Source of the DNA: Rhizobiaceae bacterium | Lineage (GTDB): Bacteria; Pseudomonadota; Alphaproteobacteria; Rhizobiales; Rhizobiaceae | Reading direction: 5' to 3' | NCBI GenBank assembly: GCA_965230715.1 | Contig: CBDDLK010000001.1 | Span: 2,738,656-2,802,655, forward strand | DNA length: 64,000 nt | Part shown: positions 13,698 to 32,633 of the stretch, in pieces | How the letters are laid out: every line of letters starts with the position of its first letter | Position numbering within the stretch: position 1 is the first letter of the stretch | Made by a program: the position numbers and the translations under genes | Notes under the pieces: generated by a model | Database searches by the model: none | What the model was told of the DNA's origin: nothing | What the model saw: the letters and a program-made list of their open reading frames with translations, nothing else

Positions 13698-14097
13698 TTT
13701 TATTCTCCTTGTGTGCATCCATCTCGGACAATCGAACAGTTCGATCGATTTTTATACACTCTTACAAAGCTAACTTGTTTACTATTGTTTCATCAAGGCT
13801 GATGCATCAAGGCGATCCAACCCTTTATCATTCATCCACCGTATTCCATCTTCAACATTTTCACGACCTCACAACCACACAGACAATGAAATCCGCTTCG
13901 CGCCATTATTACCGAAGCTACACAAATTTTCTATAATTATCTTTTTTATTTACTTTTGTTACAAAGATATTATTCTAATAGCAAGCCCATAGAAGGCCGA
14001 GGCAAAACAAGGTCCGCAAGAAAACAGCCAGAAGGTGCAATCCGGCTTTCGTGACGGGCACATGACATTACTCATTCCCCGTGAACGGAGAACAAAG

Positions 14098-15288
14098 ATG
14101 AATGCCCATGCTCCTGCGACCCAACCAACTGACCCGGAACTGCGCGATACGTTCATCAATGGCATGAGCCACGCCGCTTGCACCGTAAACATTATCACAA
14201 CAGACGGGCCTGCCGGGAAAGGCGGCGTAACGGTCTCGGCAATGTCTTCGGTTAGCGCTGACACTCCAAAGCCAACGCTGCTGGTTTGCGTTCATCATTT
14301 GTCTCCTGTCGCAGAACAGATCAAGGTCAACGGTTGTTTCGTGGTAAACGTTCTGCGCGACGATCAGGCCTATATTTCTGATACCTTCGCAGGCCGGTTC
14401 AAAGACCAGGTAACGGACAAGTTTGACTGCACCGAATGGACCAACATGTCGTCGGGCGCCCCCCGGGTTGTCGACCCTTTGGTTGGTTTCGACTGCAAAG
14501 TCGTTTCCGCAGAGCAGGTCGGAACCCATTACGTTTTTTTCGGTGAAGTTCAGGACATTTTCATCTCAGGTCGCGGGTCTCCATTGATTTATGCCAACCG
14601 GGCTTATGGTTCTGCGAACCGAATCGAGCCAGTCAACTCCATTGGTGACGGGCGGCAAGAAGCCGATCGCAAACTGTCCATCGGATGTTTCCACTCTTTT
14701 GGACCATTTGTCGTTCCAGAAATCATCCACGGCCTTACAAAAGCCGATGCAAACCTTTCAATATCTGTCGTGGAAGGCGATCAGCGCCGCCTGCAGGAAG
14801 CGTTATTGTCAGGCGAATGTGAAGTAGGCCTGATGTATGAAGACGAGATGCCCGAAGAAATTGGTTACGACATTATGGCCCGGCTTGAACTGTATGTTCT
14901 TCTTGCCGAAAACGACCCATTGACCAAAAATGAGAGCATCGGGCCGGAAGACCTGGCAGACCGTCCATTGATCTATCTTCAGGGACTGCCTACCGATGCT
15001 TTCCTCGCAGATGTTCAAGCCACTTGTGGCCGGGATCCCAAGATCGCATACAGACCAAGATCCCTGGAAATGGCGCGCTCGATGGTAGGACATGGTTTGG
15101 GATACACAGTGTTGGCTACGAAGCCGGCCTCTGCCATGACTTATGACGGCAAGGCACTGACCTCGCGTACCTATGCAGGTAACAACGGCTCGATGAACAT
15201 TGTCCTTGCCGTTTTGAAAGACGCAGACCTGTCCCCCGCTGCGCAACAATTCCACAAGTTCTGCAGGACGTTCTTTGATTTGGACTGA
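14098..15288 (+). CDS. fusion protein: NADH:flavin reductase-like domain + LysR-type effector-binding domain, no HTH
   Basis: The N-terminal half has LRDTFINGMSHAACTVNIITT and GVTVSAMSSVS...LLVCV (HpaC-like). The C-terminal half has LSIGCFHSFGPFVVPEIIHGL and GHGLGYTVLA (LTTR co-inducer domain). GGAG lies before the ATG at 14098. Confidence 0.8.
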   Translation: MNAHAPATQPTDPELRDTFINGMSHAACTVNIITTDGPAGKGGVTVSAMSSVSADTPKPTLLVCVHHLSPVAEQIKVNGCFVVNVLRDDQAYISDTFAGRFKDQVTDKFDCTEWTNMSSGAPRVVDPLVGFDCKVVSAEQVGTHYVFFGEVQDIFISGRGSPLIYANRAYGSANRIEPVNSIGDGRQEADRKLSIGCFHSFGPFVVPEIIHGLTKADANLSISVVEGDQRRLQEALLSGECEVGLMYEDEMPEEIGYDIMARLELYVLLAENDPLTKNESIGPEDLADRPLIYLQGLPTDAFLADVQATCGRDPKIAYRPRSLEMARSMVGHGLGYTVLATKPASAMTYDGKALTSRTYAGNNGSMNIVLAVLKDADLSPAAQQFHKFCRTFFDLD

Positions 15289-16986: not shown

Positions 16987-17661
16987 CTATTCGGTTGGAA
17001 TCGGAGCTTCGCCAAAGAATGACTTGGGATAGTAATTCCGAAAATCCTCGTCGATGCGACTGAACGGCAGTTCGCTCCAGTAGCCATGGTCCTTGAGGTA
17101 TTCCATCCGGGTATTATTATCTGAGTCATACTCCTGGAGAATGGCATGGTTCCGACCGTCGAATTCTGTCGGTGCGACACCGGTTTTGTCACACAGCTCC
17201 TTGTTAAAAGCCGGCACAGCCTTGACCCACTTGCCTTCCAGATACATTACCGCGTAACCATGATGCAGAAACACCGTTTTGCCTGCCATGGCCCGTTCGA
17301 CCTTGGGTGAGGTAAAGTGGTTGATCACATCGCTAAGGCCGATCACGGCTGGAATTCCAGCCGCTCGTGCAGTCGCAACCAAAAGGGATGCTTTGGGAAT
17401 GCAGAACGCAGACCCCTTTGCGATGACGTCGCTCGCGACATAGATGTCCGGGGTCATTCGAATGCCGAAAATGTCATAACGGAACTCATCGCGAATTGCA
17501 TAGAACAACCGGATGGCCTTCTTGATTTCATTGGTTTCGTCATCGATCACGCGTTCGACAAATGCCTGTACAGACGGTGTTTCGAAATCAAAAAACCGCG
17601 TGGGAGCCAGGTTTTCAACACTGGGTTCAGGATCACCGTAAGGCGTGAATATCATTGTCAT
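16987..17661 (-). CDS. transglutaminase-like (Cys-His-Asp fold) protein
   Basis: GSAFCIPKASLL and HHGYAVMYLEGKW match the transglutaminase-core Cys and His regions. The start at MTMIF abuts the upstream stop. Confidence 0.65.
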   Translation of the reverse strand: MTMIFTPYGDPEPSVENLAPTRFFDFETPSVQAFVERVIDDETNEIKKAIRLFYAIRDEFRYDIFGIRMTPDIYVASDVIAKGSAFCIPKASLLVATARAAGIPAVIGLSDVINHFTSPKVERAMAGKTVFLHHGYAVMYLEGKWVKAVPAFNKELCDKTGVAPTEFDGRNHAILQEYDSDNNTRMEYLKDHGYWSELPFSRIDEDFRNYYPKSFFGEAPIPTE

Positions 17662-18887
17662 GTCCTCTCGTTTGACGGGCGTTGCGAGACTTCGATTACC
17701 ATCGCGAATCCGGAGTCCCCGGCGGCACATCCATTGTAAAGACCAAGACCGCCACCGCGCGCGACCAGTTCTTCAATCAGTTCGATAATGACACGCGTTC
17801 CGGTGGGGCCTTGTGGATGGCCAAAAACCAGCGAGCAACCATAGTTGTTCATTTTCATCACGTCGAACCCAGTCTCACGGGCAAAAACGATGTCATTGAC
17901 GACAAATGGATTGTGAGACTTTACTGCATCAATGTCTGTAATCTGCAACCCTGCCCGCTGTAGGGCAGTCTTGGTTGCCGGTACAGGCGCAAACGGCATG
18001 AACCCTCGCTCTGCCCTGCCCTGTGCATATGAAAGAATACGTATACGAATGTTCGAATCGGCCGAAATTTCGCGAGCCTTGTCAGAACTTGCAACTATCA
18101 TTGATGCGTTGCCATCGGCAGGGTGTGTCTGGCCGGCAAAAGTAACCGTACCTCCCGGTGTTGCTGGCTTGAGCCGGTCGAGATCGTCGCGCGAAGGGTT
18201 GTGCACACCCACATCGCCGTCGATTGTTTCGATAACCTTGGCCAGCTTGGCGTCTGGCGCTCCAAATGGCAGGGTCATGTAACGCCGCTGAAACGCCCGA
18301 TCGTTTGCAAGTGCCTCGCCATATTGCTGGTATCGGCGCATAACAACATCATGCTGTTCCGACGTTTCAATTCCCCATTTTTCTGCACAGTTTTCAGCTG
18401 TTTGCACCACCGGTTCGCGCAAATGCGGCGCATCTGAGAAATTATCAATGTAAAAAGCTTCTGTTTGTGGAATACCACCCGGCCCACCGTCTCCGGCGTA
18501 GGTAATGAATGCGCCGTTGGAGGCCCGGTCGCATGTGACTACCAACGATGTCAGCGCGACACCCTCATTCACCTCGGTTGCTGAAAACGCAATCGCCCGC
18601 GGTCCGGTCTGGCACGCCTGCACCACCGTTGGGCCAGGAACATTATCAACCCCGATCATCGACATGACCCAAGGCGCACCCCAGAACGAGCGCCATTGAG
18701 GCACCGTCACACCAAGGGTTGAATGATCGAACAGGTCCGGCGCGATGCCGCGCGTATCAAGCTCGTTCTTTGCAACATGGGCAGCAAATTTCATTGAATG
18801 CAAATGTGCAAATGCACCCTGCCATTTCACGAACGGCGTAGACCAGTAACCACGAAACGGTATTTCCACGTTTTCAAGCATGGTCAT
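17658..18887 (-). CDS. thiolase-family protein
   Basis: It has VVQACQTG (nucleophile Cys), VFGHPQGPTG (His) and NGCAAGD (C-terminal Cys). Its ATG overlaps the stop of the upstream ligase gene (ATGA). Confidence 0.8.
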   Translation of the reverse strand: MTMLENVEIPFRGYWSTPFVKWQGAFAHLHSMKFAAHVAKNELDTRGIAPDLFDHSTLGVTVPQWRSFWGAPWVMSMIGVDNVPGPTVVQACQTGPRAIAFSATEVNEGVALTSLVVTCDRASNGAFITYAGDGGPGGIPQTEAFYIDNFSDAPHLREPVVQTAENCAEKWGIETSEQHDVVMRRYQQYGEALANDRAFQRRYMTLPFGAPDAKLAKVIETIDGDVGVHNPSRDDLDRLKPATPGGTVTFAGQTHPADGNASMIVASSDKAREISADSNIRIRILSYAQGRAERGFMPFAPVPATKTALQRAGLQITDIDAVKSHNPFVVNDIVFARETGFDVMKMNNYGCSLVFGHPQGPTGTRVIIELIEELVARGGGLGLYNGCAAGDSGFAMVIEVSQRPSNERT

Positions 18888-21625: not shown

Positions 21626-22687
21626 TCAGTTTCCTGCCTTCGCCTTTTCCAACTTTTTCTCGTTGAACGACGGTGTGCGGCCCTTCTGTGCAACAATACC
21701 TGCGCCACCCTCGTAGATTTCAAGGGTTTTCGATTTTGGTCGAAATGCATCATTGTTCAGCCACAACCGAAGCAGGTGGCGACGTTCGTCAGGGTCATCA
21801 TGGTCAACAAATGCTGTGCGGGAATGCACATGGTTGAGGTTGTTTACCCACTGGATTTGGCCGGGCTGGGTCATGAACTCAAACATGTATGTCGGGTCAT
21901 TTTGGTAGTCCCACAACAGTTCCACACATTCTTCCTCGAACCCCTCCAACGGCTCGCCCAGTTCTCGTTGACCCATCTCAATGAATGTCTTGATCCAACG
22001 TGAGCTGATTTTGCCGTCAGTGTCCGAGAAAACTGGAATTTTGTATGGGGTAACAGGATCATCGCCAGGCCCTTCTTCGCCACGGCGGTGGTAGTGGAAA
22101 CCCTGGTAAAGTCGCTCCAATACATCCGGACGGTTCTTCAGCAAGGCGTTGTGAACCGACGCCATGCTGGTCAGTTGGCTCAAACCACCTTCCTTGGCAC
22201 CCTTGATGCAGCACAATGACAGGATATCGCAATAGTCAGTATGCGGATTGAGCTTGTCCGAATTTCGATAGGCACGGGCGTGTGGATCGTTTTCAACTTT
22301 TGTAGCATCACGGACATGTCCAAGACGTTCGCCCATGACAGATTGAACAAGGCCGTTTCCCAGCGTTGTTCCCATCCCCCAATAGGCGCGCTCAACGTCC
22401 TCCTGCGACCAGCGGTCTACCGGTAATCCGGACATGATCAGGAACCCACGGCCATGTTGAAGTTCGTCCCAAACCTTTTTCATGGTTTGCTTGAGCTTTG
22501 GACAATCGAAATCCTCGGCTTCGACCTCATCCAGTCCTTTGCCCTCGGCATCCATTTTCCTGTTGAAGGCTTCAAGTTCGGCGATCTCGTCCGCCGAAAG
22601 CTCGATTGTGTAGTCAGCGGGAACCAGTTTGGCAGGTAACCAGGCCTCGGCTCCCTCGATCGGTTTGATATCTGTGGCAAGAGTCAT
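21626..22687 (-). CDS. TauD/TfdA-family Fe(II)/2-oxoglutarate dioxygenase
   Basis: It has an HxD iron motif (LNPHTDYCD) and a distal His (NHVHSRTAF). Length is 353 aa. Its ATG overlaps the upstream stop (ATGA). Confidence 0.75.
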   Translation of the reverse strand: MTLATDIKPIEGAEAWLPAKLVPADYTIELSADEIAELEAFNRKMDAEGKGLDEVEAEDFDCPKLKQTMKKVWDELQHGRGFLIMSGLPVDRWSQEDVERAYWGMGTTLGNGLVQSVMGERLGHVRDATKVENDPHARAYRNSDKLNPHTDYCDILSLCCIKGAKEGGLSQLTSMASVHNALLKNRPDVLERLYQGFHYHRRGEEGPGDDPVTPYKIPVFSDTDGKISSRWIKTFIEMGQRELGEPLEGFEEECVELLWDYQNDPTYMFEFMTQPGQIQWVNNLNHVHSRTAFVDHDDPDERRHLLRLWLNNDAFRPKSKTLEIYEGGAGIVAQKGRTPSFNEKKLEKAKAGN

Positions 22688-23355
22688 GTCGTTTCTTCTC
22701 CAAATGCACGGTTAATAACGGGGACTTGCTCCGGCACAATCGTGGTTTTACCGGTGAACCCCAACTCCTGCACGCGCTGGCAAAGCACATGCAGTCCCTC
22801 CAGGTCTTCGAGAGGACGATACGGCTCATCGAACAACATGATCCCCCGAATGGATGCTGCGCTGGCTGTTCGGGCACGGGCATAACGAAGCCCTTCCCAA
22901 CTGCGACCACAGCGCGCGTAAATCGAATAATCTTTGCCGCCAAAGAAAATGCCAACAAGGTTGGCTCGTGTCTCGACAATATCGAAAACGTTCTCCACGG
23001 CTTGTGGTCGCTCAACAATAGCGATCACGGGCATGTCCGGCATGATGTCAGCAAACATGTCCAGCTCGACACGGGTGTCAAAGCGGGGAATGCAAATACT
23101 GTCTGGCTTCATATCGCTTTCAGCGATCATGATCATGTCTTTCAGGCCATCCAGCGTGTTCAATCCGTTAATGCGAACACAATGATTGAAGTCACCATGG
23201 CGCTTGGAAATGAATTCGCGAACCAGTTCGCGCCCTGCTTCCTTGTCGTCAACGGTATCCTCAAGGTCGACCATGACCATGTCGGCCCCACAGGAAATGG
23301 CGGCCGCGAATTTTTCGCGGCTCGCCCCCATAACAATGATCGAACTTCGGATCAT
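22684..23355 (-). CDS. HpcH/HpaI aldolase / citrate-lyase beta (CitE)-like protein, short form
   Basis: RSSIIVMGAS...ADMVMVDLEDTV, AIVERPQAV and FGGKDY follow the order of CitE/acyl-CoA-lyase motifs. At about 223 aa it lacks the usual C-terminal part. The ATG at 23355 overlaps the dctP-type stop. Confidence 0.7.
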   Translation of the reverse strand: MIRSSIIVMGASREKFAAAISCGADMVMVDLEDTVDDKEAGRELVREFISKRHGDFNHCVRINGLNTLDGLKDMIMIAESDMKPDSICIPRFDTRVELDMFADIMPDMPVIAIVERPQAVENVFDIVETRANLVGIFFGGKDYSIYARCGRSWEGLRYARARTASAASIRGIMLFDEPYRPLEDLEGLHVLCQRVQELGFTGKTTIVPEQVPVINRAFGEETT

Positions 23356-24467
23356 CAAAGCTTCTCCGGATCCACTTTAGAGTAGATTTCATCCTGAAGT
23401 GCCTTGATGAAAGCGGCGCGTTCACCACCGGTTTCCTCGGTGATTTTGCTCCACTTCTTTTCAAGTTCGAAATAGGTTTCGATCAGGGCTTCAGGGTTTT
23501 CAACACCGCGCTTCTTGGCCCGCTCGATGATCTGCGGCAAAGCTTTGGCACGATAGCTTTCCAAGGCAGTGTCAAAATCGGCACCACCTGCTTCGAACGT
23601 GACACCGGCTTCCTTGGCCAGACCAATCGCAACCTGATCCTGGGCGTCATAACCGTCAACAATACCCCGATAGCTTGACCTTGCGAGCGAATTTACAATT
23701 CCCTGACGGTTTTCAGCGGAAACACTGTCCCAGCTGTCACGATTCATGAAAAGGTAAGACATGACCCGCGTAATTCCCATTGGGGTATCAACCACATGCT
23801 TGACTGTGTCGAACAGGCTGAAGCTCTTGAGCCAGGCAACCGGTCCAAACGTACAATCAATCTGGCCCCGCTGCAGACCCTCAACCAACTCACCCGATGT
23901 CATCTTGACAGGTGTCATTTGCAAATGCTTGGCCCAGCCACCAGTAGCGCCCGACGAACGGACCTTGACCCCTTTGAGGTCAGCGACAGTCTTGTAGGGC
24001 TCGGTGCACATCATGCGAAACGCAGAAGTAACGGTGCTTCCAAGATAAACCAGATTGTGCTTGCGGAAATCTTCAAGACAGCCCGGACAGTTCAAAAGCA
24101 CGGTTTCCTCGGTAGCGCCCAAAATGGCCAGCGGATTGTCTCCGAAGTACTGCAACTCGTTGATGGTTGCGACGACCGGGATAGAGTTGGTCACAAAGCT
24201 GGGTACCGTAGCCGATGCATCAGCCATGCCGCGACCTGTCGATGCCAGAGCCTCGCGGGCCGGAAACAGGGCGCCACCGGAAACCAGTTTCCACGCAACC
24301 TCTCCGTTGGTGTTCTTTTCGATGTCTTCAAAAAGCGTCGGAAGGATAATGGTGTTGATCAGGTGTTTGGGCCCGACCCAGCTACCATAAGTGAATTCAT
24401 CGGCATTCGCGGCAACTGGCGATATCATCGCCGCGACCGCCAGACCAGTCAGGAATTGTTTGAACAT
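23355..24467 (-). CDS. TRAP transporter substrate-binding protein (DctP family)
   Basis: It has the signal peptide MFKQFLTGLAVAAMISPVAANA, is 370 aa, and lies next to the DctM and DctQ genes. Confidence 0.88.
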   Translation of the reverse strand: MFKQFLTGLAVAAMISPVAANADEFTYGSWVGPKHLINTIILPTLFEDIEKNTNGEVAWKLVSGGALFPAREALASTGRGMADASATVPSFVTNSIPVVATINELQYFGDNPLAILGATEETVLLNCPGCLEDFRKHNLVYLGSTVTSAFRMMCTEPYKTVADLKGVKVRSSGATGGWAKHLQMTPVKMTSGELVEGLQRGQIDCTFGPVAWLKSFSLFDTVKHVVDTPMGITRVMSYLFMNRDSWDSVSAENRQGIVNSLARSSYRGIVDGYDAQDQVAIGLAKEAGVTFEAGGADFDTALESYRAKALPQIIERAKKRGVENPEALIETYFELEKKWSKITEETGGERAAFIKALQDEIYSKVDPEKL

Positions 24468-24500
24468 TTGTAACCTCCTATTGGATGGATTTGTGCCGCC

Positions 24501-25805
24501 TTACATCAGGCTTGGCAGGTAAAGAGACAGTGCGGGAAAGGCGATGAGAAGCGCCACTACCACAGCCTCACAGCCGAGGAACCACCAGATTCCGCGGAAG
24601 ATTTCGTTGAGTTTTACATCGTCACCCGTCACCGAGTTGATGACGTAGACATTAAAGCCGACCGGCGGCGTCAACAGACCGATTTCCAGGTACTTGACCA
24701 CGATGATACCGAACCAGATCAGGTCCAAGTCCAATCGTTCATAAATCGGCAGCAAAATGGGAAGCGTGATAAGCATCAACCCCAAGGGGTCCAGAAACAT
24801 GCCCAGGATGATGAAGATGACCGAGGTTGCCAGAACCAGCCAAATCAGGTTTCCCGAATAGCCTTCCATGATATCCGCCAGGAAAAAGGGAACCCCGCTC
24901 ATCGTCAAAAAGATTGTGAGAAGGACCGCACCGATCGCTACAAAGAAAAGACGGGAGGTTGAATGGAGCGCATCTTCGAAGGCGTTTAACATGCTGGACC
25001 AACTGAACTTGCCCTGGACGATTGTGATGACGATAGCCATGAATGCGCCGAATGCCGCTGCTTCGGTCGGCGTGACAAAACCCGAATAGATGCCGCCAAT
25101 GATTGCAAGTATCAGAAGGAAGATTGGCCAGACCTCCTTTGCCGACTGTATCTTCTCTTCCCGCGTGAAAGCCTCCACAGATGCAGGTGCAAGCTCTGGG
25201 TTCATGCTGCAACGTGTGATCAACATGGCCGCATAGACGAAGGCCGTCAGCAAGCCGGGAATGATCCCTGCAATCAACAACTTGCTGATCGAAACTTCAG
25301 CGAACACGCCGTAGAGCACCAGAAGAATACTGGGAGGGATCAGGGAACCCAAGGTGCCCGAAGCGGCGACAACACTTGTGGCCAACGACTTGTCGTATCC
25401 ACGTTTCAGCATCTCGGGAACGGCAAGTCGGCCCATTGCCGCTGCCGTTGCCATGGAAGAGCCTGACGCTGCTGCAAAGCCGGCACAGGCAAAATTCGTC
25501 GCGACGGCCAAGCCACCTGGCAACCAGCTGAGCCAAATGCGCGCCATATTGAACAGCGCTCCACTGATCCCTGAATTATGCGCTATCGCCCCCATAAGGA
25601 TAAACATCGGGATCGCTGAAAGGCTCCAATGCGCTGTAAAACTGAACGGAATGGTCTCCAAGGTACCGAAAGCCACCTTGAAGTTCTTGAGGAACATGAT
25701 CCCCGCGATTGACGTAAGCCCAAGCGAGATGGCAATCGGAACGCGAGCAGCAAGAAGCAGGATGGCGATGCCAACGCCGGTGAAACCAATTGCAAGATCT
25801 GACAT
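24501..25805 (-). CDS. TRAP transporter large permease (DctM family)
   Basis: It is a polytopic protein of about 434 aa. The start at MSDLAIG shares one nucleotide with the DctQ stop (TGATG). The longer track ORF is an upstream read-through. Confidence 0.9.
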   Translation of the reverse strand: MSDLAIGFTGVGIAILLLAARVPIAISLGLTSIAGIMFLKNFKVAFGTLETIPFSFTAHWSLSAIPMFILMGAIAHNSGISGALFNMARIWLSWLPGGLAVATNFACAGFAAASGSSMATAAAMGRLAVPEMLKRGYDKSLATSVVAASGTLGSLIPPSILLVLYGVFAEVSISKLLIAGIIPGLLTAFVYAAMLITRCSMNPELAPASVEAFTREEKIQSAKEVWPIFLLILAIIGGIYSGFVTPTEAAAFGAFMAIVITIVQGKFSWSSMLNAFEDALHSTSRLFFVAIGAVLLTIFLTMSGVPFFLADIMEGYSGNLIWLVLATSVIFIILGMFLDPLGLMLITLPILLPIYERLDLDLIWFGIIVVKYLEIGLLTPPVGFNVYVINSVTGDDVKLNEIFRGIWWFLGCEAVVVALLIAFPALSLYLPSLM

Positions 25806-26311
25806 CAGCCCGCCTCCCCGTAATTTTGCCCCAGAAGGGACTTCAGGTCTTTGCGCATTTTTGCCAATGTAACAAAGATAAACAGGAAAGACGCAAACGG
25901 CAGGCACCAACGGCTTGGCCAGACTTCAATGAACGTTACCGCCGCTTCCCAACTCTCCCGATACCCGGTGTTCTCAATCGCGCTCATGGTCGAGGCCCAG
26001 CAGAAAACAACCAGAAATATCAACGTCAGCAACCCGGCAAACAGATCAAAGCCTGCCATATTCTTGCGCTCGAGGTTTTGGGTAAATACCTCTACGATCA
26101 AGTGCCCTTCCTTGCGTGTCACATAAGCCAAGGGAAGAAACACAACGCCAACCATGTAGTATGCAGAGACTATCTCGGTGGTGCCATCAATTGGGGCATT
26201 GAATACATTTCTCGCCACGACATCGACGACAATGTGGATCATCATCAGGGAGAGCATGATCAACCCGATTTTATCACCAATGCGCTCCAGCGTTTTCAGG
26301 AAAAAATCCAT
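25805..26311 (-). CDS. TRAP transporter small permease (DctQ family)
   Basis: It is a 168-aa, 4-TM protein and the first gene of the Q-M-P order. Confidence 0.88.
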   Translation of the reverse strand: MDFFLKTLERIGDKIGLIMLSLMMIHIVVDVVARNVFNAPIDGTTEIVSAYYMVGVVFLPLAYVTRKEGHLIVEVFTQNLERKNMAGFDLFAGLLTLIFLVVFCWASTMSAIENTGYRESWEAAVTFIEVWPSRWCLPFASFLFIFVTLAKMRKDLKSLLGQNYGEAG

Positions 26312-26728: not shown

Positions 26729-27271
26729 GTGAACAGCGGCGAAGAACTTAGACACAACACCGTTAACCGACGAGAATTGTTAAACGATGGAACTGACGAA
26801 GCGTTTCGACAGTTCGTACACGATGCGCTGGCGTTTTCTGTCAGACTGCTTGCAATTCGCGATGGATACGGCAAATTGATGGGGATCACCGGACCCCAAT
26901 ATACAATTCTTATCAGTATCGCCCATCTGGGTCGTCACGGACCTGTCAGCGTTTCGAAGATCTCCAATCATCTGCATCTTAGCGGGTCGTTTGTGACGAG
27001 CGAGACAAAGAAAATGGAGAATGAAAACCTGATACGCAAAGTCAGCAATTCCGGCGACAAACGACGGGTTGATCTTGAGATCACCGACGACGGGTGGCGA
27101 AGGCTTGCGGATCTGTCTTCGATTCAGGCGGAAGTAAACGACGTTCACTTCGGGCCGCTTACGCGCAAAACCTTCCGCCAGTTGCGGGAAATCCTGCCGG
27201 AACTGGTAGACAGCACTGACGAAGCTCTTTCGCTTCTCAATCACCTGAAAAATACAAACCGCCGCGCCTGA
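26729..27271 (+). CDS. MarR-family transcriptional regulator
   Basis: The winged-HTH region is GPQYTILISIAHLGRHGPVSVSKISNHLHLSGSFVTSETKKMENENLIRK. It has a GTG start. Confidence 0.85.
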   Translation: MNSGEELRHNTVNRRELLNDGTDEAFRQFVHDALAFSVRLLAIRDGYGKLMGITGPQYTILISIAHLGRHGPVSVSKISNHLHLSGSFVTSETKKMENENLIRKVSNSGDKRRVDLEITDDGWRRLADLSSIQAEVNDVHFGPLTRKTFRQLREILPELVDSTDEALSLLNHLKNTNRRA

Positions 27272-27291
27272 TGAACCTTGTTTGGAACTGA

Positions 27292-28476
27292 TCAGGCGAA
27301 CAGGTTTCTGATTTCAGAACGTTCGACGGTAATTGGCCTGACCGTAGGTGGCGTATTGCGGCTGCGCCCGACAAAGCGGGGAACACCATCTGATATTACC
27401 GCGCCAATGGCGCATGGGTCACCATTCTTCATTGCCTTCAATGCAGTGGGCTGGGTGCCACCTTCAGGGGCATCAATCAAAACGACATCCGCTGCCTTTC
27501 CAACTTGCAGGATACCACTGTCCAACCCGTAAGTGCGGGCGACATTGCCGGTTGCAGCGGCAATCATGGTTTCCATGTCAAAGTCGGCAAGCGAGGCGAT
27601 CTGCGTCATGGTATAGATCATTCCAAGGGGCATGATCCCGCTACCGGTGGGTGTGTCTGTCGCGATCAGAAACCGGTCCATTGCATCATGTTTCTTTGCC
27701 ATTTCGGCGCACAAGATTGTTGTACGGAGATTTCCGGCGGTACAGACCTGCATGGCAATTCGGGTATCACGTGCAACGGGTTCAAAATACTTGTCGTCCA
27801 TCGCGACAGGACCGCCATTGATATGAAATGACACATGTGGATTAATGGCCATCAAATCTTCGCCGGTGATCGGAAACGAACCTGGAATAGACGCTCCGCC
27901 GGTGTGCAGCGTTGTTGTCATTCCCGCTTTTCTGGCGAGATTGACCAACGCAACATAGTCTTGCGCCGCAGAAACCGCGCCAAATCCGGCTTTTGCGAGC
28001 CATACCCCGTCCTTGCTGATTTCTTCCAGGTCGGCAAGCTGCAAACCAGGTTCAAGGATAATGGAACCGGCATGGACCCGCATTCCGCCCGGTCTGTAAG
28101 TCTCAAAGCATTTGCGCGCAGCCACAGCAAGCGCTTTGACGCCCTGTATGTCGCTCGGTCGCCCGGGCACGTGAACCTCTGAAGCGGTGATTGATGTTGT
28201 TGTCCCGCCGTGGAGGTAACTGGTCAGATATCCAACTGTGTTTTGGCGCGGCGTGAAATCCCCGAACGTAATATGTACGTGACTGTCGATCAGGCCAGGA
28301 ATCGCTGTTGCGCCATTTGCATCAATTACGACATCGCAACCATCAAGCTCGTTGGCGGGAACATCCCCGATCGCGGTGATCTTCCCATTTTCGCAGATAA
28401 TCGTCTCCCCGTCGACCACGGGAGAGGTAAGATCTCCGGATACAATCGTCTGCAAATTGCGAACACCAACGCGCAT
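27292..28476 (-). CDS. metal-dependent amidohydrolase (enamidase / cyclic-amidase-like)
   Basis: It has an N-terminal beta-sandwich followed by GLIDSHVHITFGD (HxH metal site). Length is 394 aa. Confidence 0.8.
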   Translation of the reverse strand: MRVGVRNLQTIVSGDLTSPVVDGETIICENGKITAIGDVPANELDGCDVVIDANGATAIPGLIDSHVHITFGDFTPRQNTVGYLTSYLHGGTTTSITASEVHVPGRPSDIQGVKALAVAARKCFETYRPGGMRVHAGSIILEPGLQLADLEEISKDGVWLAKAGFGAVSAAQDYVALVNLARKAGMTTTLHTGGASIPGSFPITGEDLMAINPHVSFHINGGPVAMDDKYFEPVARDTRIAMQVCTAGNLRTTILCAEMAKKHDAMDRFLIATDTPTGSGIMPLGMIYTMTQIASLADFDMETMIAAATGNVARTYGLDSGILQVGKAADVVLIDAPEGGTQPTALKAMKNGDPCAIGAVISDGVPRFVGRSRNTPPTVRPITVERSEIRNLFA

Positions 28477-28512
28477 GGGGCTGCTCCACTTACTTTCGGG
28501 CCGGTCTTTGAC

Positions 28513-29091
28513 TCAGACCAATCCGTCTTCCTTCTTGGCTTCGCCTAGCGAAAGACCACCGCAACGTTCGTTCAAACGGCCACGGTTCGCCAGAACGCAA
28601 ATGACCGCGATTTCATCGGGCAAAGGCGCGTCGTGAAGCGTAATGCTCATCGCATCATAGTGAGACCTAACATACAAGGCATCCTTGTATGCGAGCGGAA
28701 TATCAATCGTCGCGCCGGGTTGTGCCCGTTTCGTGGCCGAAGAAACCCAAGCTTTGCCGCCACCGACAATCTCACGCATTACATTGCCATAAACCGTGGT
28801 CAACAGGGCAACCGCATGGTCCTGTTCTCCGTTTATCCCGACAACCCCACCCTTGCCGTAACTTTGCACTTCGTATGGAGCCAGCGCATCCTTTGCCATA
28901 TTGGTTATTCGGGTGCAAAGCTCCCGGCTCGCCTCATAATAGGGGGAAATGTCTTCGACATACCTGCCAGCGAATTCATTTTTTATGATCGCGACAACCG
29001 CTACCTTGCGCAACGGGACATCAGCTTCGATACCTGCCTCGGAAAATGTCTCCTCGACATAAGTGTTGATTCTGCGGATTTGCAATTGCAT
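28513..29091 (-). CDS. amino-acid-synthesis family protein (DUF1185 / AA_synth)
   Basis: The 192-aa product begins MQLQIRRINTYVEETFSEAGIEADVPLRKVAVVAIIKNEFAGRY. Size and N-terminus match the AA_synth family as I remember it. Confidence 0.65.
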   Translation of the reverse strand: MQLQIRRINTYVEETFSEAGIEADVPLRKVAVVAIIKNEFAGRYVEDISPYYEASRELCTRITNMAKDALAPYEVQSYGKGGVVGINGEQDHAVALLTTVYGNVMREIVGGGKAWVSSATKRAQPGATIDIPLAYKDALYVRSHYDAMSITLHDAPLPDEIAVICVLANRGRLNERCGGLSLGEAKKEDGLV

Positions 29092-29126
29092 TTTTGTCTA
29101 TCCTTTTGTTTCCAGCGTCAGACAGC

Positions 29127-30614
29127 TTACTCGGCTGCCACTTTGTTCTTGACTGCAAACGCGGTGTCATTGCCATTCAGCAAATTGGTTACCAACTGCT
29201 CCGGCCCGTCCCAATCATAGGTACGGAAACTGTGTCCGGCTGTCACGAATTGCGCCCCGGCATAGAACATTTCATACTGGACATGACGGCTTGCAAACTC
29301 GGACCCAACGGCATCCCAGGCAAGTTTGAGGAATTTCATCCTCTCATATGCCCCTTCACCATCGCGCGCGGAAACCTGCATGTCGTCGAGGTATTTTGCC
29401 ACTTCGGGATGCGCCAGATCCGGTGCGGAACTGGGCAGCATGATCAGTCCGCCACCGGCCAGCTCTCTGATTTCATTAATAAATTTCGGGTACAAGTCCT
29501 GTGTGTAAACCTGTGCAGTATACAACAGGTTCCGGTCAACGACATAGTAGTCGCCCTGCATGGTGCCTTTCGCCTCCATTCCCCAGAGCATTCCTTCGGC
29601 AGCAGATATTTCCGCCGCCATGCGACCAAGCTTCTCGCGCACAGCGGGAATGTTGATGGTTCCGATTGTCTCGGTAACGCGCCGGGCCACTCCCAACAGA
29701 AACTTCATTTTAACAACCCAACGCGCCTGGGACTGGTAGTTCTGCATGATATGTCCGGGGGTCGCATGAAACTGCTTCATGCACATGGACGTGTCCTTGA
29801 AAAGAAACACCCGGTCCCACGGCACTTTCACGTCTTCAAAGTATATAACTGCGTCATTCTCATCAAAGCGGTATGACAGCGGGTTGTCGAACTCGGATAC
29901 GGCGCTTTTCTCGTAAGACTTGCGCGAAATGATTTTGATGCCCTTGGCGTCCAGCGGCATCGCGAAAGAGATCGCAAACTTTTCTTCGCCCTGTTGCAAG
30001 GGTTGCAGGTTGGCGACAAAAATCTCCTCAGCCATGATCGCCGAGGTTCCCAGCATCTTTGCCCCGCGGACGGTCACTCCCTCGCTGTCTTCATCGACAA
30101 TATGCATTGTAAGGTCTTCACCATCCTGTTCACCCCAAGCCTTGGATCGGTCTGCCTGTGGGTTGATGATAACGTAAGTCAGGAAGATGTCGTTGTCCCG
30201 GGCATATTCATAATACCCCTGATAGGCTTTGGCGTACTGCTCGCCATGTTCGCGGAACACATCGATATTCATCAACTGGCCGGAAATCGCCGATGCCAGA
30301 TGGTCCGGCGAACGTCCCATCCATCCACCATTGAGTTCAGCCCAAGCGGTAATGGCCTCGCGGCGCCCCACCAGTTCTTCGTACGATTTGGCTTGCTGCC
30401 ATGCCTTGTTAGCACGACGCCCATTGCCAATGTCATACGTCATCATCTCCAGGTTTTCAGGGGCTGCCTGAAAATCATACATCGATGCCGTAGACAGGCA
30501 GCTGTTGCGAAACGCTGGATGATCGGCGACCCGAGTGATCAGTTGGCCGTCTAGAAAGACTTCCCGATCCTTGTCGAGTGATTTCAGATGGTCCGAACCG
30601 TTTTTAACTGTCAT
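29127..30614 (-). CDS. HpaB-family two-component flavin-dependent monooxygenase, oxygenase subunit
   Basis: The N-terminus HLKSLDKDREVFLDGQLITRVADHPAF and the GRSPDH motif are typical of 4-hydroxyphenylacetate 3-hydroxylase-type oxygenases. GGAGGG lies before the ATG at 30614. Confidence 0.85.
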   Translation of the reverse strand: MTVKNGSDHLKSLDKDREVFLDGQLITRVADHPAFRNSCLSTASMYDFQAAPENLEMMTYDIGNGRRANKAWQQAKSYEELVGRREAITAWAELNGGWMGRSPDHLASAISGQLMNIDVFREHGEQYAKAYQGYYEYARDNDIFLTYVIINPQADRSKAWGEQDGEDLTMHIVDEDSEGVTVRGAKMLGTSAIMAEEIFVANLQPLQQGEEKFAISFAMPLDAKGIKIISRKSYEKSAVSEFDNPLSYRFDENDAVIYFEDVKVPWDRVFLFKDTSMCMKQFHATPGHIMQNYQSQARWVVKMKFLLGVARRVTETIGTINIPAVREKLGRMAAEISAAEGMLWGMEAKGTMQGDYYVVDRNLLYTAQVYTQDLYPKFINEIRELAGGGLIMLPSSAPDLAHPEVAKYLDDMQVSARDGEGAYERMKFLKLAWDAVGSEFASRHVQYEMFYAGAQFVTAGHSFRTYDWDGPEQLVTNLLNGNDTAFAVKNKVAAE

Positions 30615-30909
30615 TGTTCCCTCCGGGATTTTTGTTGATCCATAGCGCTGAGTTGCCCCTGGGTTTAAACAGGCACATGCTGCTGCGATGGTAGAAACTT
30701 GCAAACTTGCCGATAACCGGCCCGCCGTTGTGGAGATTATCCGGCTTGTCTCGCTTTGGAACGAAGCCGGTGAGCGGTCGTTTTTTCAACCGTTCTCCGA
30801 ACCAGGGAGAATACATCGCTTCGTCGTGCGTTGCACCACCATACACACGGCGCAAAGACGGCGGTTTTGTTACCGATGTGTCAAGTTGGTGTATTTCTTG
30901 CGGCCTCAT
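30604..30909 (-). CDS. hypothetical 101-aa basic protein, first gene of the HpaB-type operon
   Basis: GGAGAG lies 4 nt upstream of the ATG at 30909. G+C and codon choice resemble neighbouring genes, while the DNA upstream of 30909 turns AT-rich. Its stop overlaps the oxygenase start by 11 nt. I recognise no domain. Confidence 0.35.
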   Translation of the reverse strand: MRPQEIHQLDTSVTKPPSLRRVYGGATHDEAMYSPWFGERLKKRPLTGFVPKRDKPDNLHNGGPVIGKFASFYHRSSMCLFKPRGNSALWINKNPGGNNDS

Positions 30910-31220
30910 TCAGCTCTCCGCTGGATTTTTTTATCTATTTATTTTACCTTTGTTACTTAGTCAATATAGCAATTTTTTTAAAACACCATCAACAACATAA
31001 AGGCATTTACCTCAACATGCACTTTAATCACTATATTTCAAAATGTTAGCAATCGTTTCGCAAAATTTTCCGGATTCGATTGGCTTCAAAAAATGGTTCG
31101 TCAGCGAAATAATGTGCTGGGGTTTGAGGGTTTTCCCTTCCAAGGAGAATCGAGTTTGCTTAGGTTTTTTTGTGCTTTGCAATCATGAAACAAAACATCT
31201 CACCGGAATAACCCGAACCC

Positions 31221-32633
31221 ATGAACGTTCTGCTTGAATCCATTCGCAGCGACAAGACGGCTGGCACTGTTCTGGCTGGCGCCTGTATGATGTCCGCAAT
31301 TTCACAGGCTGTGCAAATTCCGTCCATCTTAATCGCCACTTGCGTAGTTCTTTTCGTGTTTTTCGCGCTCGTTTGGCAATCGCTTCAGCTATTCCCGAGA
31401 ATCCTGCTATTCCTTCCGCTCCTGTTAATCGTGCTACTCCACGTGACAGGAAAATACGATCAGGCACTTGTGTTGAGTGCCCTTGAACGTGGCACATTTC
31501 TTTCGCTGTTTGTTGTGACGCTCAGTTTGATACGTGTCGTAGCCCTTAGTTCGCCATATGTCAGATATTGCGGACAATTGATTGTGCACCAACCGCCGGG
31601 CCGACGCTATTTCGTTCTGTCATTCGGAGCGCATCTGTTCGGAATATTGTTGAACTTTGCGGCGCTTTCACTTCTTGGCAGCATGGTGCGTTCATCGACT
31701 GCTGTCGAGCCGGGCAACGATCAGCACAGAATTGCCATGATACGCCGCAAACGAATGTCCCTTGCGGTGATCCGGGGCTTTGCGACGATAGCAACATGGT
31801 CTCCCCTGTCTGCATTTCTCGCGGTTCTGATTTCACTTGTGCCAGGAACAAGCCTTGTGGATGTGATACCGCCCGGTTTGGCGATATTTGTAGCCTTCAT
31901 TATGCTGGGTTGGGTCTTCGACAGATTCTCCTATCCTCGGCGAAACCTCCCTGACACCGAGACTGCATTTCGTGAAACCGCACTTGCATTTTTGGGTTTA
32001 TTGGGGATCGTCATAGCCTTTGTCGCAGCTGCCGGAGCACTTTCACAGCTTACCGGAATGACGATTGTGAACAGCCTGCTTTTTGTCGTCCCCCTGGCAT
32101 CAATCGGATGGGTCTACATCCAATGTGCTGGCGAAAAGGAAACCGCAACTGCCTCGCGCGTATGGTACCGTGTCACAAACGAGTTCCCCCCCGCATTGAC
32201 AGAACTAAAGGCTGAAGCCACGATGTTTTTTTCCTATGGAATGCTGGGAACCTTGATCCTGCCATTCTTGCGCCCTGAAGAATGGGGGGCGTTTTTTGCG
32301 GCGGCACAAATTACCCAGACCCACATCCTGATTGCAGCGTTCTGGGTCATTGTGGCCATGGCCCAATTGGGCGTAAATCCATTGCTTACTGTTCTGGTGA
32401 TCGCTTCGGTGGTTCCCCAAATCACAAGCCCGGTAGTCGATGGGGTACTGCTACTCATCGCCATACAGTTTGGGTGGTGCACTTGCATTGTCTTCAGCCC
32501 CTATACCGCGGCATCGCGGATACTGGGATCGGCGACGGGTGTCCCGCATCGCACTATGTGTCTGAGATGGAATCTCGGCTTTACGCTCACATGGATCGGA
32601 CTTGCCAGCCTGACGCTCGTTATCGCGTCCTGA
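31221..32633 (+). CDS. polytopic membrane protein of unknown family (470 aa)
   Basis: It has at least 10 hydrophobic segments. I recognise no motif. Confidence 0.6.
   Translation: MNVLLESIRSDKTAGTVLAGACMMSAISQAVQIPSILIATCVVLFVFFALVWQSLQLFPRILLFLPLLLIVLLHVTGKYDQALVLSALERGTFLSLFVVTLSLIRVVALSSPYVRYCGQLIVHQPPGRRYFVLSFGAHLFGILLNFAALSLLGSMVRSSTAVEPGNDQHRIAMIRRKRMSLAVIRGFATIATWSPLSAFLAVLISLVPGTSLVDVIPPGLAIFVAFIMLGWVFDRFSYPRRNLPDTETAFRETALAFLGLLGIVIAFVAAAGALSQLTGMTIVNSLLFVVPLASIGWVYIQCAGEKETATASRVWYRVTNEFPPALTELKAEATMFFSYGMLGTLILPFLRPEEWGAFFAAAQITQTHILIAAFWVIVAMAQLGVNPLLTVLVIASVVPQITSPVVDGVLLLIAIQFGWCTCIVFSPYTAASRILGSATGVPHRTMCLRWNLGFTLTWIGLASLTLVIAS

Follow-up and report, generated by a model that had tools for sequence, protein, structure and literature searches.

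The 64-kb stretch of a Rhizobiaceae bacterium genome analyzed here (the window; GenBank assembly GCA_965230715.1, contig CBDDLK010000001.1, positions 2,738,656 to 2,802,655) carries on its minus strand, from 30614 to 27292, the genes of an HpaB-family oxygenase, an AA_synth (DUF1185) protein and an enamidase homolog in one run. The three genes form an operon with intergenic gaps of 35 and 36 nt and a purine run resembling a ribosome binding site in front of each downstream gene; they recur as a module in other bacteria and are tied to clusters of molybdenum (Mo) hydroxylase, enamidase-family and DUF1185 genes. The chances seem to us about even that the locus, as its gene content would suggest, is a self-contained cassette under MarR control for the catabolism of a small N-heterocyclic carboxylate, in which hydroxylation would be followed by ring opening and processing of the product. 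The trio varies a known theme, enamidase-based ring opening, and does not amount to a new kind of system. A first-pass annotation of the window had described the same three tightly spaced genes; their coordinates and gaps were confirmed, and profile searches matched all three of the families that it had named (HpaB, AA_synth and Amidohydro_1).

The oxygenase matches Pfam HpaB_N (PF11794, E = 2.1e-86) and HpaB (PF03241, E = 1.7e-53) over its full length, which identifies it at the domain level as the oxygenase component of a two-component flavin monooxygenase (HpaB family, group D). Its closest PDB entries are 4-hydroxyphenylacetate 3-monooxygenases (best E = 2.5e-78; 4-hydroxybutyryl-CoA dehydratase reaches just 1.3e-25) and its highest-scoring NCBIfam models are HpaB-1 and HpaB-2, but it scores only 297.1 bits against the 4-hydroxyphenylacetate 3-monooxygenase equivalog TIGR02309 (cut-off 480.2) and 274.9 bits against TIGR02310 (cut-off 885.2). 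In an alignment with Escherichia coli HpaB (PDB 6qyh), Arg113 is kept as Arg101, Tyr117 is replaced by His105 and His155 by Tyr147; the three E. coli residues are, we take it, the phenol-binding triad of the HpaB crystal structures. The His105/Tyr147 swap appears to mark a subfamily because it is nearly invariant, each position being kept in 81 of the 82 relatives compared, which go down to 40% identity. By this Arg101-His105-Tyr147 signature, the window oxygenase belongs to a distinct HpaB subfamily.

The label "orphan" given to this oxygenase was apt. It is the product of the sole HpaB_N gene in the 3.15-Mb genome, and no HpaC-type flavin reductase gene adjoins the trio, while related HpaB loci often carry an adjacent small flavin reductase. 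The genome has four Flavin_Reduct genes, the nearest lying 14 kb off. The reductase fused to a LysR substrate domain (14035-15288) had been put forward as the flavin donor, but it is no better a candidate than a stand-alone reductase encoded elsewhere in the genome (C1:1465682-1466116): HpaB-linked reductases from other loci resemble the two alike (~30%), and the assignment of a single partner was given up.

The amidohydrolase aligns without gaps to the enamidase (Ena) of Eubacterium barkeri (PDB 2VUN) over residues 5-381 (E = 2.1e-93, 41% identity), and the amidohydrolase metal ligands His66, His68, His191, His218 and Asp274 are all present; its earlier description as enamidase-like was thus more cautious than it needed to be. 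The family was surveyed in an even sample of 401 genomes of the window's class; the sample includes related genomes, so that the counts are descriptive, and it yielded 35 loci in 32 genomes. Identities to the window protein fall into two ranges (52-62% and 35-42%), and a tree (FastTree only) separates clade I (26 sequences, with E. barkeri Ena as sister) from clade II (25 sequences including the window protein; support 99). The alignment column of Ena Glu164, presumably a metal-bridging ligand by analogy, is Glu in Ena and all 26 clade I sequences and Lys in all 25 of clade II (Lys162 in the window). Clade II keeps His68, Lys162, His191, His218 and Asp274 invariant; the first His of the HxH motif is Gln in 13 of its 25 sequences and His in the window protein.

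The two clades also keep different company. Clade I genes with enough flanking DNA mostly adjoin an XDH-type Mo-hydroxylase, a 506-aa protein that matches no family, a 313-aa protein of PRK04334 type, AA_synth genes (one or two) and a marR gene. Clade II genes are linked to hpaB in 22 of the 25 cases, and the other three adjoin a Rieske oxygenase, Mo-hydroxylases (locus L086), or a flavoprotein and a ferredoxin reductase. The window protein groups with clade II and has no Mo-hydroxylase, 506-aa or 313-aa neighbors; the last two partners are absent from the whole window genome. It belongs to the enamidase family, as had been proposed, but by tree and metal site it is a paralog in a separate clade and not an ortholog. 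At L085:7550-13057 (genome G309), a clade II enamidase and an AA_synth protein almost identical to their counterparts in the Kiloniellales locus L001 lie with a LigXa-like Rieske oxygenase, a multicopper oxidase and a methyltransferase in place of HpaB.

The neighborhoods of 80 loci encoding HpaB relatives (40-72% identity, one genome per species) were compared, their genes being called by conservation-weighted open reading frame (ORF) calling; many contigs are short, and the counts are lower bounds. An enamidase homolog (49-68% identity) is present in at least 17 of the 80, and at least nine of these 17 also carry AA_synth. A MarR ortholog (41-64% identity) commonly flanks hpaB. Locus L081 has the identical order, HpaB-AA_synth-amidohydrolase with a convergent marR gene, and the smallest unit (L083) consists of HpaB and the amidohydrolase alone, which argues that two enzymes would be enough to reach a central metabolite. 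Members of the Alpha-, Beta- and Gammaproteobacteria, Actinomycetota and Bacillota carry the module. In a maximum-likelihood tree all enamidase-linked HpaBs except a divergent Cohnella copy fall in one clade of 34 rows (support 98/97) that spans Alpha-, Beta- and Gammaproteobacteria and Acidimicrobiales; the association of the two genes is not due to chance. The distribution of the trio is patchy, since all three genes are missing from the three genomes in the class sample that belong to the window's own order. The trio is not confined to this genome, and no close homolog of the oxygenase or amidohydrolase with an assigned, unrelated substrate came to light, two points on which the first-pass annotation had staked its reading; indeed, NCBIfam, the PDB and the literature yielded no close homolog of any trio enzyme with an assigned function or substrate, and no paper on the trio was found.

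HpaBs of the sister clades are flanked by genes for Cupin_7, an amidase-signature enzyme, DUF2848, HyuA/HyuB (here presumably oxoprolinase-type lactamases), isochorismatase-family proteins and a polysaccharide-deacetylase-like protein. Some of these loci also encode a UbiD decarboxylase and a UbiX-like flavoprotein; the UbiD protein is closest to PDB 6h6v/6h6x (E = 2e-74), which we take to be the furan-2,5-dicarboxylate decarboxylase HmfF. The neighbors are thus C-N hydrolases of unrelated folds and, in places, a heteroaromatic-acid decarboxylase, as would fit an HpaB subfamily that hydroxylates N-heteroaromatic acids. Two module types recur in these clades (L052, L057, L080, L068, L070, L073, L034, L045, L051), one made up of MarR, HpaB, reductase, Cupin_7 and amidase-signature enzyme, with or without DUF2848, UbiD and the UbiX-like flavoprotein, and the other containing HyuA/HyuB and an isochorismatase.

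Two trio clusters carry candidate enzymes for a later step. In Falsochrobactrum shanghaiense HN4 (L047), genes for AA_synth, enamidase-like protein, succinate-semialdehyde dehydrogenase (SSADH), reductase, HpaB, amidase and ABC transport lie on one strand, with a divergent marR gene upstream; the SSADH scores 655 bits against TIGR01780, above the cut-off of 646. The cluster of Cohnella sp. WGS1546 (L077) comprises an enamidase-like protein, DUF4286, AA_synth, a sigma-54 activator, DctPQM, reductase, HpaB, a second AA_synth, FAD synthetase, an aldehyde dehydrogenase (637.6 bits, slightly under the same cut-off) and NadA. The FAD synthetase and quinolinate synthase (NadA) genes of this cluster are at L077:12088-15527, and the cluster, under the control of the sigma-54 activator, adjoins rpoN. 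A C4 product is what the SSADH-type partner suggests. The window genome encodes an SSADH too, unlinked to the trio, which shares 66% identity with the L047 enzyme. Linked uptake systems vary from locus to locus (HAAT ABC, TctC, TAXI-TRAP, DctP-TRAP), all of them organic-anion types. No hint of the substrate came from the ABC binding protein of related loci, whose closest solved structures are generic HAAT amino-acid binders, or from the window DctP, which has only weak PDB matches.

The middle gene of the trio encodes a full-length AA_synth protein (PF06684, 209.9 bits, E = 2.4e-62, model positions 1-175) that matches two structural-genomics entries, PDB 2qtp (E = 2.8e-42) and 3byq (1e-28), of a hexameric family with a chorismate-mutase-like fold. 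The authors of the DUF1185 structures could propose no more than an involvement in "amino-acid metabolism", and describe His144 of BB2672 as solvent-exposed and "strictly conserved" (PMC2954203). The His of the P-L-(G/A)-H-K-D motif, judged by its sequence context, is probably this residue; it is His in 47 of 50 relatives, Tyr in the window protein (DIPLAYKD) and its closest relative at L081, and Phe in one Cohnella copy. The family's GE-x-EH motif reads GEQDH in the window protein. BB2672 itself was considered as part of a Bordetella trio cluster and set aside, the AA_synth protein of the Bordetella-like locus L007 being different (E = 1.9e-19), and nothing useful was found in the literature on the neighborhood of Ruegeria pomeroyi SPO0826.

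DUF1185 had been said in the first-pass annotation to have no assigned role in any pathway of this kind, and here the annotation needs correcting. Of the 35 enamidase-family loci, 25 have an AA_synth gene no more than 10 kb away, several of those that do not being on contigs of a few kb, and DUF1185 is a regular pathway partner of enamidase-family genes. Identity to the window copy follows the enamidase split (46-69% in clade II loci, 39-45% in Mo-type loci). A further precedent is TgnF, a DUF1185 protein of trigonelline catabolism, which in PMC7913881 (citing Perchat et al. 2018) is reported to stimulate succinate-semialdehyde oxidation by TgnE. Among 20 AA_synth loci with no enamidase gene nearby, nine are clusters with the 506-aa and/or 313-aa proteins, most with a Mo-hydroxylase too; four of the nine (L134, L135, L138, L130) have HyuA and/or HyuB, presumably of the ATP-dependent lactamase type, at the enamidase's place. 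Seven others carry an aldehyde dehydrogenase, six of them together with a luciferase-like monooxygenase, and the remaining four have other contexts. The cluster of AA_synth, luciferase-like monooxygenase and aldehyde dehydrogenase is seen at L122:1471-7301 and also in L125, L126, L127, L132 and L137; L122, the sole annotated example, also encodes a 308-aa flavin reductase and an alpha/beta hydrolase, and by analogy looks like the trigonelline (tgn) gene set. Common to these contexts would be the opening of an N-heterocyclic carboxylate ring, giving an enamine or formyl-dicarboxylate that has to be turned into a semialdehyde. Tandem AA_synth paralogs are usual in the Mo-hydroxylase clusters (L088:8750-9915, L092:8878-10043 and many others), with the motifs GELEHAAAIL/PLGHKD in one copy and GELEHG-ALW/PVTHIN in the other, which suggests a hetero-oligomer; HpaB-type clusters have a single copy.

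The pathway that these gene contexts suggest would begin with a free flavin reductase, encoded elsewhere, that delivers reduced flavin to the HpaB-type oxygenase. With O2 the oxygenase would hydroxylate the carbon adjoining the ring nitrogen of a weakly aromatic (pyrrole- or pyridone-type) carboxylate and, because such a ring is weakly aromatic, the product would settle as a cyclic enamide or lactam. Judging from its homology to enamidase, the clade II metallohydrolase would then open the lactam, with ammonia freed via an enamine, and the DUF1185 hexamer, from its gene context, would speed conversion of a labile enamine or beta-formyl/imino acid to a stable semialdehyde or 2-oxo acid by tautomerization, hydrolysis or decarboxylation. 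The end product entering central metabolism would most likely be succinate semialdehyde or 2-oxoglutarate. The module conserves no ring reductase and in some genomes gets by with two enzymes; a five-membered ring would therefore fit better than pyridine, hydroxypyrroles existing as pyrrolinones. Candidate substrates are pyrrole-2- or pyrrole-3-carboxylate, for which the two-component pyrrole-2-carboxylate monooxygenase of Rhodococcus offers a biochemical precedent. The more specific proposal that the trio is the missing pyrrole-carboxylate gene set, with HpaB acting on pyrrole, the Lys-type branch of enamidases opening the ring and DUF1185 leading to succinate semialdehyde or 2-oxoglutarate as in nicotinate and trigonelline catabolism, we regard as doubtful. 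The first-pass annotation had already imagined hydroxylation, formation of a lactam or enamide and hydrolytic ring opening, and this logic is consistent with the gene context, namely the conserved trio, the C-N hydrolases of the sister clades and the back end of the Mo-hydroxylase clusters.

Several observations weigh against an N-heterocycle cassette of this kind. At the metal site of the hydrolase, Lys replaces Glu at the presumed bridging residue and half of clade II has Gln at the start of HxH, so its chemistry may differ from that of true enamidase; and KpiC, an enamidase-related amidohydrolase, is reported to work as a dioxygenase (PMC7356986). Many members of the HpaB clade have no hydrolase nearby. 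About half of the HpaB-enamidase loci lack AA_synth, which would thus seem to be dispensable or replaceable, and the window copy has Tyr in place of the widely conserved His. SSADH is present in just two trio clusters, both from cultured isolates.

Three other explanations were weighed. An O2-dependent variant of the nicotinate (6-oxo-tetrahydronicotinate) pathway, in which HpaB replaces the Mo-hydroxylase and the ring reductase, the substrate has a nicotinate-type six-membered ring (a pyridone or dihydroxypyridine carboxylate, for instance) and DUF1185 decarboxylates the formyl-dicarboxylate, would account for the back end shared with the Mo-hydroxylase clusters (enamidase family, DUF1185, MarR-family regulator and HAAT ABC transport), for the clade II enamidase beside Mo-hydroxylases in L086 and for NadA in the Cohnella cluster. 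It seems unlikely, since enamidase acts on a reduced ring, which a monooxygenase alone could not make out of an aromatic pyridine, and the module has no conserved reductase. Moreover, true enamidase falls in a clade cleanly apart from clade II, the 506-aa and 313-aa partners are absent from the window genome, and the SSADH-type partner suggests a C4 rather than a C5 product. A hydroxypyridine route with oxidative cleavage, in which HpaB would make a dihydroxypyridine and the enamidase-like protein would be an O2- and Fe-dependent dioxygenase rather than a hydrolase, has its model in KpiC, a PF01979 protein whose closest characterized relative is enamidase (28% identity) and which acts after a flavin monooxygenase to add two oxygens to 3,4-dihydroxypyridine (PMC7356986). 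The departure of the clade II metal site from that of true enamidase could be read the same way, but clade II retains a complete binuclear-type ligand set (His68, Lys162, His191, His218, Asp274), the window protein is gaplessly collinear with, and 41% identical to, a proven hydrolase, no KpiB-like hydrolase is a conserved partner, and the SSADH and DUF1185 contexts better match hydrolytic enamine chemistry; we consider this route quite improbable.

That the oxygenase is an ordinary phenolic-acid (4-hydroxyphenylacetate-type) hydroxylase with functionally unrelated neighbors is what its top PDB and NCBIfam matches would at face value indicate, and the many clade members that lack a nearby hydrolase agree with it. 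Both equivalog scores are nevertheless far under their cut-offs, the Tyr and His with which E. coli HpaB contacts the phenol are swapped, meta-cleavage genes are absent, and the 35-36-nt gaps and recurrent co-location with a hydrolase across phyla argue for a functional unit; this explanation is very improbable.

Should the N-heterocyclic carboxylate cassette prove correct, it would represent a widespread O2-dependent way to open N-heterocyclic rings with two or three enzymes, having an interchangeable front end (HpaB, Mo-hydroxylase plus reductase, or possibly a Rieske oxygenase) and a common back end of enamidase and DUF1185. It would give a concrete biochemical context to DUF1185/AA_synth, a family mis-named "amino acid synthesis" whose structures were solved in 2010, and genes might be assigned to the orphan activity pyrrole-2-carboxylate monooxygenase. 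The annotation "enamidase" would divide into two clades by one metal-site residue (Glu or Lys), a split that should stop clade II proteins from being annotated as nicotinate enzymes.

The features of the locus are collected in the table. The ORF of the oxygenase at its longest extends to 30704, and the length in the table is that read from the ATG preceded by GGAGG. The marR gene converges on the trio, 20 nt separating the two stop codons, and diverges from dctQ; because this gap is so short and no terminator-like site was found in it (27272-27291), the marR and amidohydrolase transcripts may overlap. The 101-codon ORF in the leader was considered as a fourth gene and rejected, having no Pfam or NCBIfam match and no tblastn counterpart in related loci. 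A search of Rfam at E up to 1 recognized no riboswitch or other leader RNA upstream of the oxygenase gene. In L081 the hpaB gene begins 154 nt past a divergent gene. In the window a 470-aa ORF (31221-32633), without a Pfam or NCBIfam match or a counterpart in related loci, is divergent from the trio promoter.

Features of the trio locus and of the surrounding DNA, in window coordinates
Feature	Position	Strand	Remarks
HpaB-family oxygenase gene	30614..29127	-	495 aa; ATG behind GGAGG; Pfam HpaB_N and HpaB
AA_synth/DUF1185 gene	29091..28513	-	192 aa; PF06684
Amidohydrolase gene	28476..27292	-	394 aa; Amidohydro_1; DSHVH motif
MarR-family regulator gene	26729..27271	+	Winged-helix MarR domain; PF01047 (9.8e-10), PF12802 (9.1e-09)
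Leader of about 340 nt with 101-codon ORF	30604..30909	-	Probably not a gene
Promoter-like site, TTGATG / 18-nt spacer / TG / TATATT	30963..30992	-	Consensus match only; upstream of the trio operon
13-mer AGTAACAAAGGTA	30945..30957	-	Candidate MarR operator half-site; 6 nt downstream of predicted -10
Palindrome TTTGTAAAGTTACAAA	26342..26361	+	Candidate operator; overlaps second 13-mer copy; 31 nt upstream of dctQ start
DctQ, DctM, DctP (TRAP transporter)	23355..26311	-	Heads separate CoA-dependent operon beyond the marR gene
Flavin_Reduct and LysR-substrate-domain fusion	14035..15288	+	One of two equally plausible flavin donors

Promoter-like sites in the region are not more numerous than in shuffled sequence. 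The pattern AGTWACAAAGGTA occurs exactly twice in the window against 0.03 occurrences expected, the pattern having been derived from those two sites, and a two-region shuffle test of the 13-mer gave a p of about 0.1. Under the strict pattern the 13-mer was not found upstream of hpaB in other loci, a loose resemblance being seen in L081 and L001 only. The tripartite ATP-independent periplasmic (TRAP) transporter genes, which had been proposed to serve uptake for the trio, belong to a separate operon of DctQMP, CitE-like lyase, TauD-like dioxygenase, crotonase, ligase, thiolase, transglutaminase-like protein and acyl-CoA dehydrogenase. A TRAP system is not conserved beside the trio in related loci, Cohnella having its own DctPQM within the cluster, and what is left of the proposed link is that the shared 13-mer makes co-regulation of the TRAP/CoA operon with the trio possible. 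Two further, faint ties come from the proteins of this operon: the window's TauD-like protein (21626-22687) is 34% identical to a TauD encoded between the enamidase-like and AA_synth genes of the Bordetella-like L007, and its transglutaminase-like protein (16987-17730) is 47-52% identical to those encoded near sister-clade HpaBs in L025 and L039.

Among known systems, the hydrolase is most directly compared with enamidase (EC 3.5.2.18) of the E. barkeri nicotinate fermentation, whose reaction turns 6-oxo-1,4,5,6-tetrahydronicotinate into 2-formylglutarate and ammonia. The two are homologous over their full length without gaps and share HxH, two His and Asp, and proteobacterial relatives of Ena are likewise accompanied by DUF1185 genes; the window protein differs in its clade, in having Lys for Glu and in its HpaB neighbor, which stands where Ena has a Mo-hydroxylase and a ring reductase. 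For these reasons 6-oxo-1,4,5,6-tetrahydronicotinate cannot be assumed to be its substrate. The nicotinate-type Mo-hydroxylase clusters of proteobacteria (FAD subunit, Fer2-MoCo subunit, 506-aa protein, 313-aa PRK04334-type protein, tandem AA_synth, MarR and enamidase) resemble the trio in their enamidase family, DUF1185, MarR-family regulator and HAAT ABC transport, but their entire front end is different, their DUF1185 genes are two tandem paralogs instead of one, and their MarR is of a different subfamily (no cross-match). With HpaB/HpaC of E. coli and Thermus thermophilus the trio oxygenase shares the fold, the domain pair and the conserved Arg; it differs in scoring under the equivalog cut-offs, in the exchange at Tyr117 and His155, and in having neither an adjacent reductase nor a homoprotocatechuate pathway.

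KpiA of Arthrobacter sp. IN13 is reportedly a single-component flavoprotein. The KpiA/KpiC system for 4-hydroxypyridine (PMC7356986) is like the trio in that an enamidase-related PF01979 ring opener acts after a flavin monooxygenase, the comparison being made from the published description. It differs in that KpiC is a dioxygenase only 28% identical to enamidase and in that DUF1185 has no part in it. The ring in the trigonelline pathway is reportedly cleaved oxidatively and not hydrolytically. By the account in PMC7913881, which cites Perchat et al. 2018, tgnA-F of Acinetobacter baylyi ADP1 combine a two-component flavin oxygenase, a hydrolase that releases the ring nitrogen, a succinate-semialdehyde dehydrogenase and DUF1185. 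In the tgn-like clusters found here, the oxygenase-type neighbor is a luciferase-like monooxygenase and the hydrolase an alpha/beta hydrolase.

No gene-level literature on pyrrole-2-carboxylate catabolism was found; the two-component monooxygenase for this acid in Rhodococcus sp. is listed in PMC6165268 (reference 51, Becker, Schrader and Andreesen 1997), and we know of no gene sequence linked to the activity, which dates from the 1990s. The Rhodococcus enzyme reportedly consists of a flavin reductase and a ~54 kDa oxygenase, and its product is said to tautomerize to 5-oxo-pyrroline-2-carboxylate, a cyclic enamide. The size of that oxygenase fits the 495-aa protein of the window, and a reaction that yields an enamide would suit the trio.

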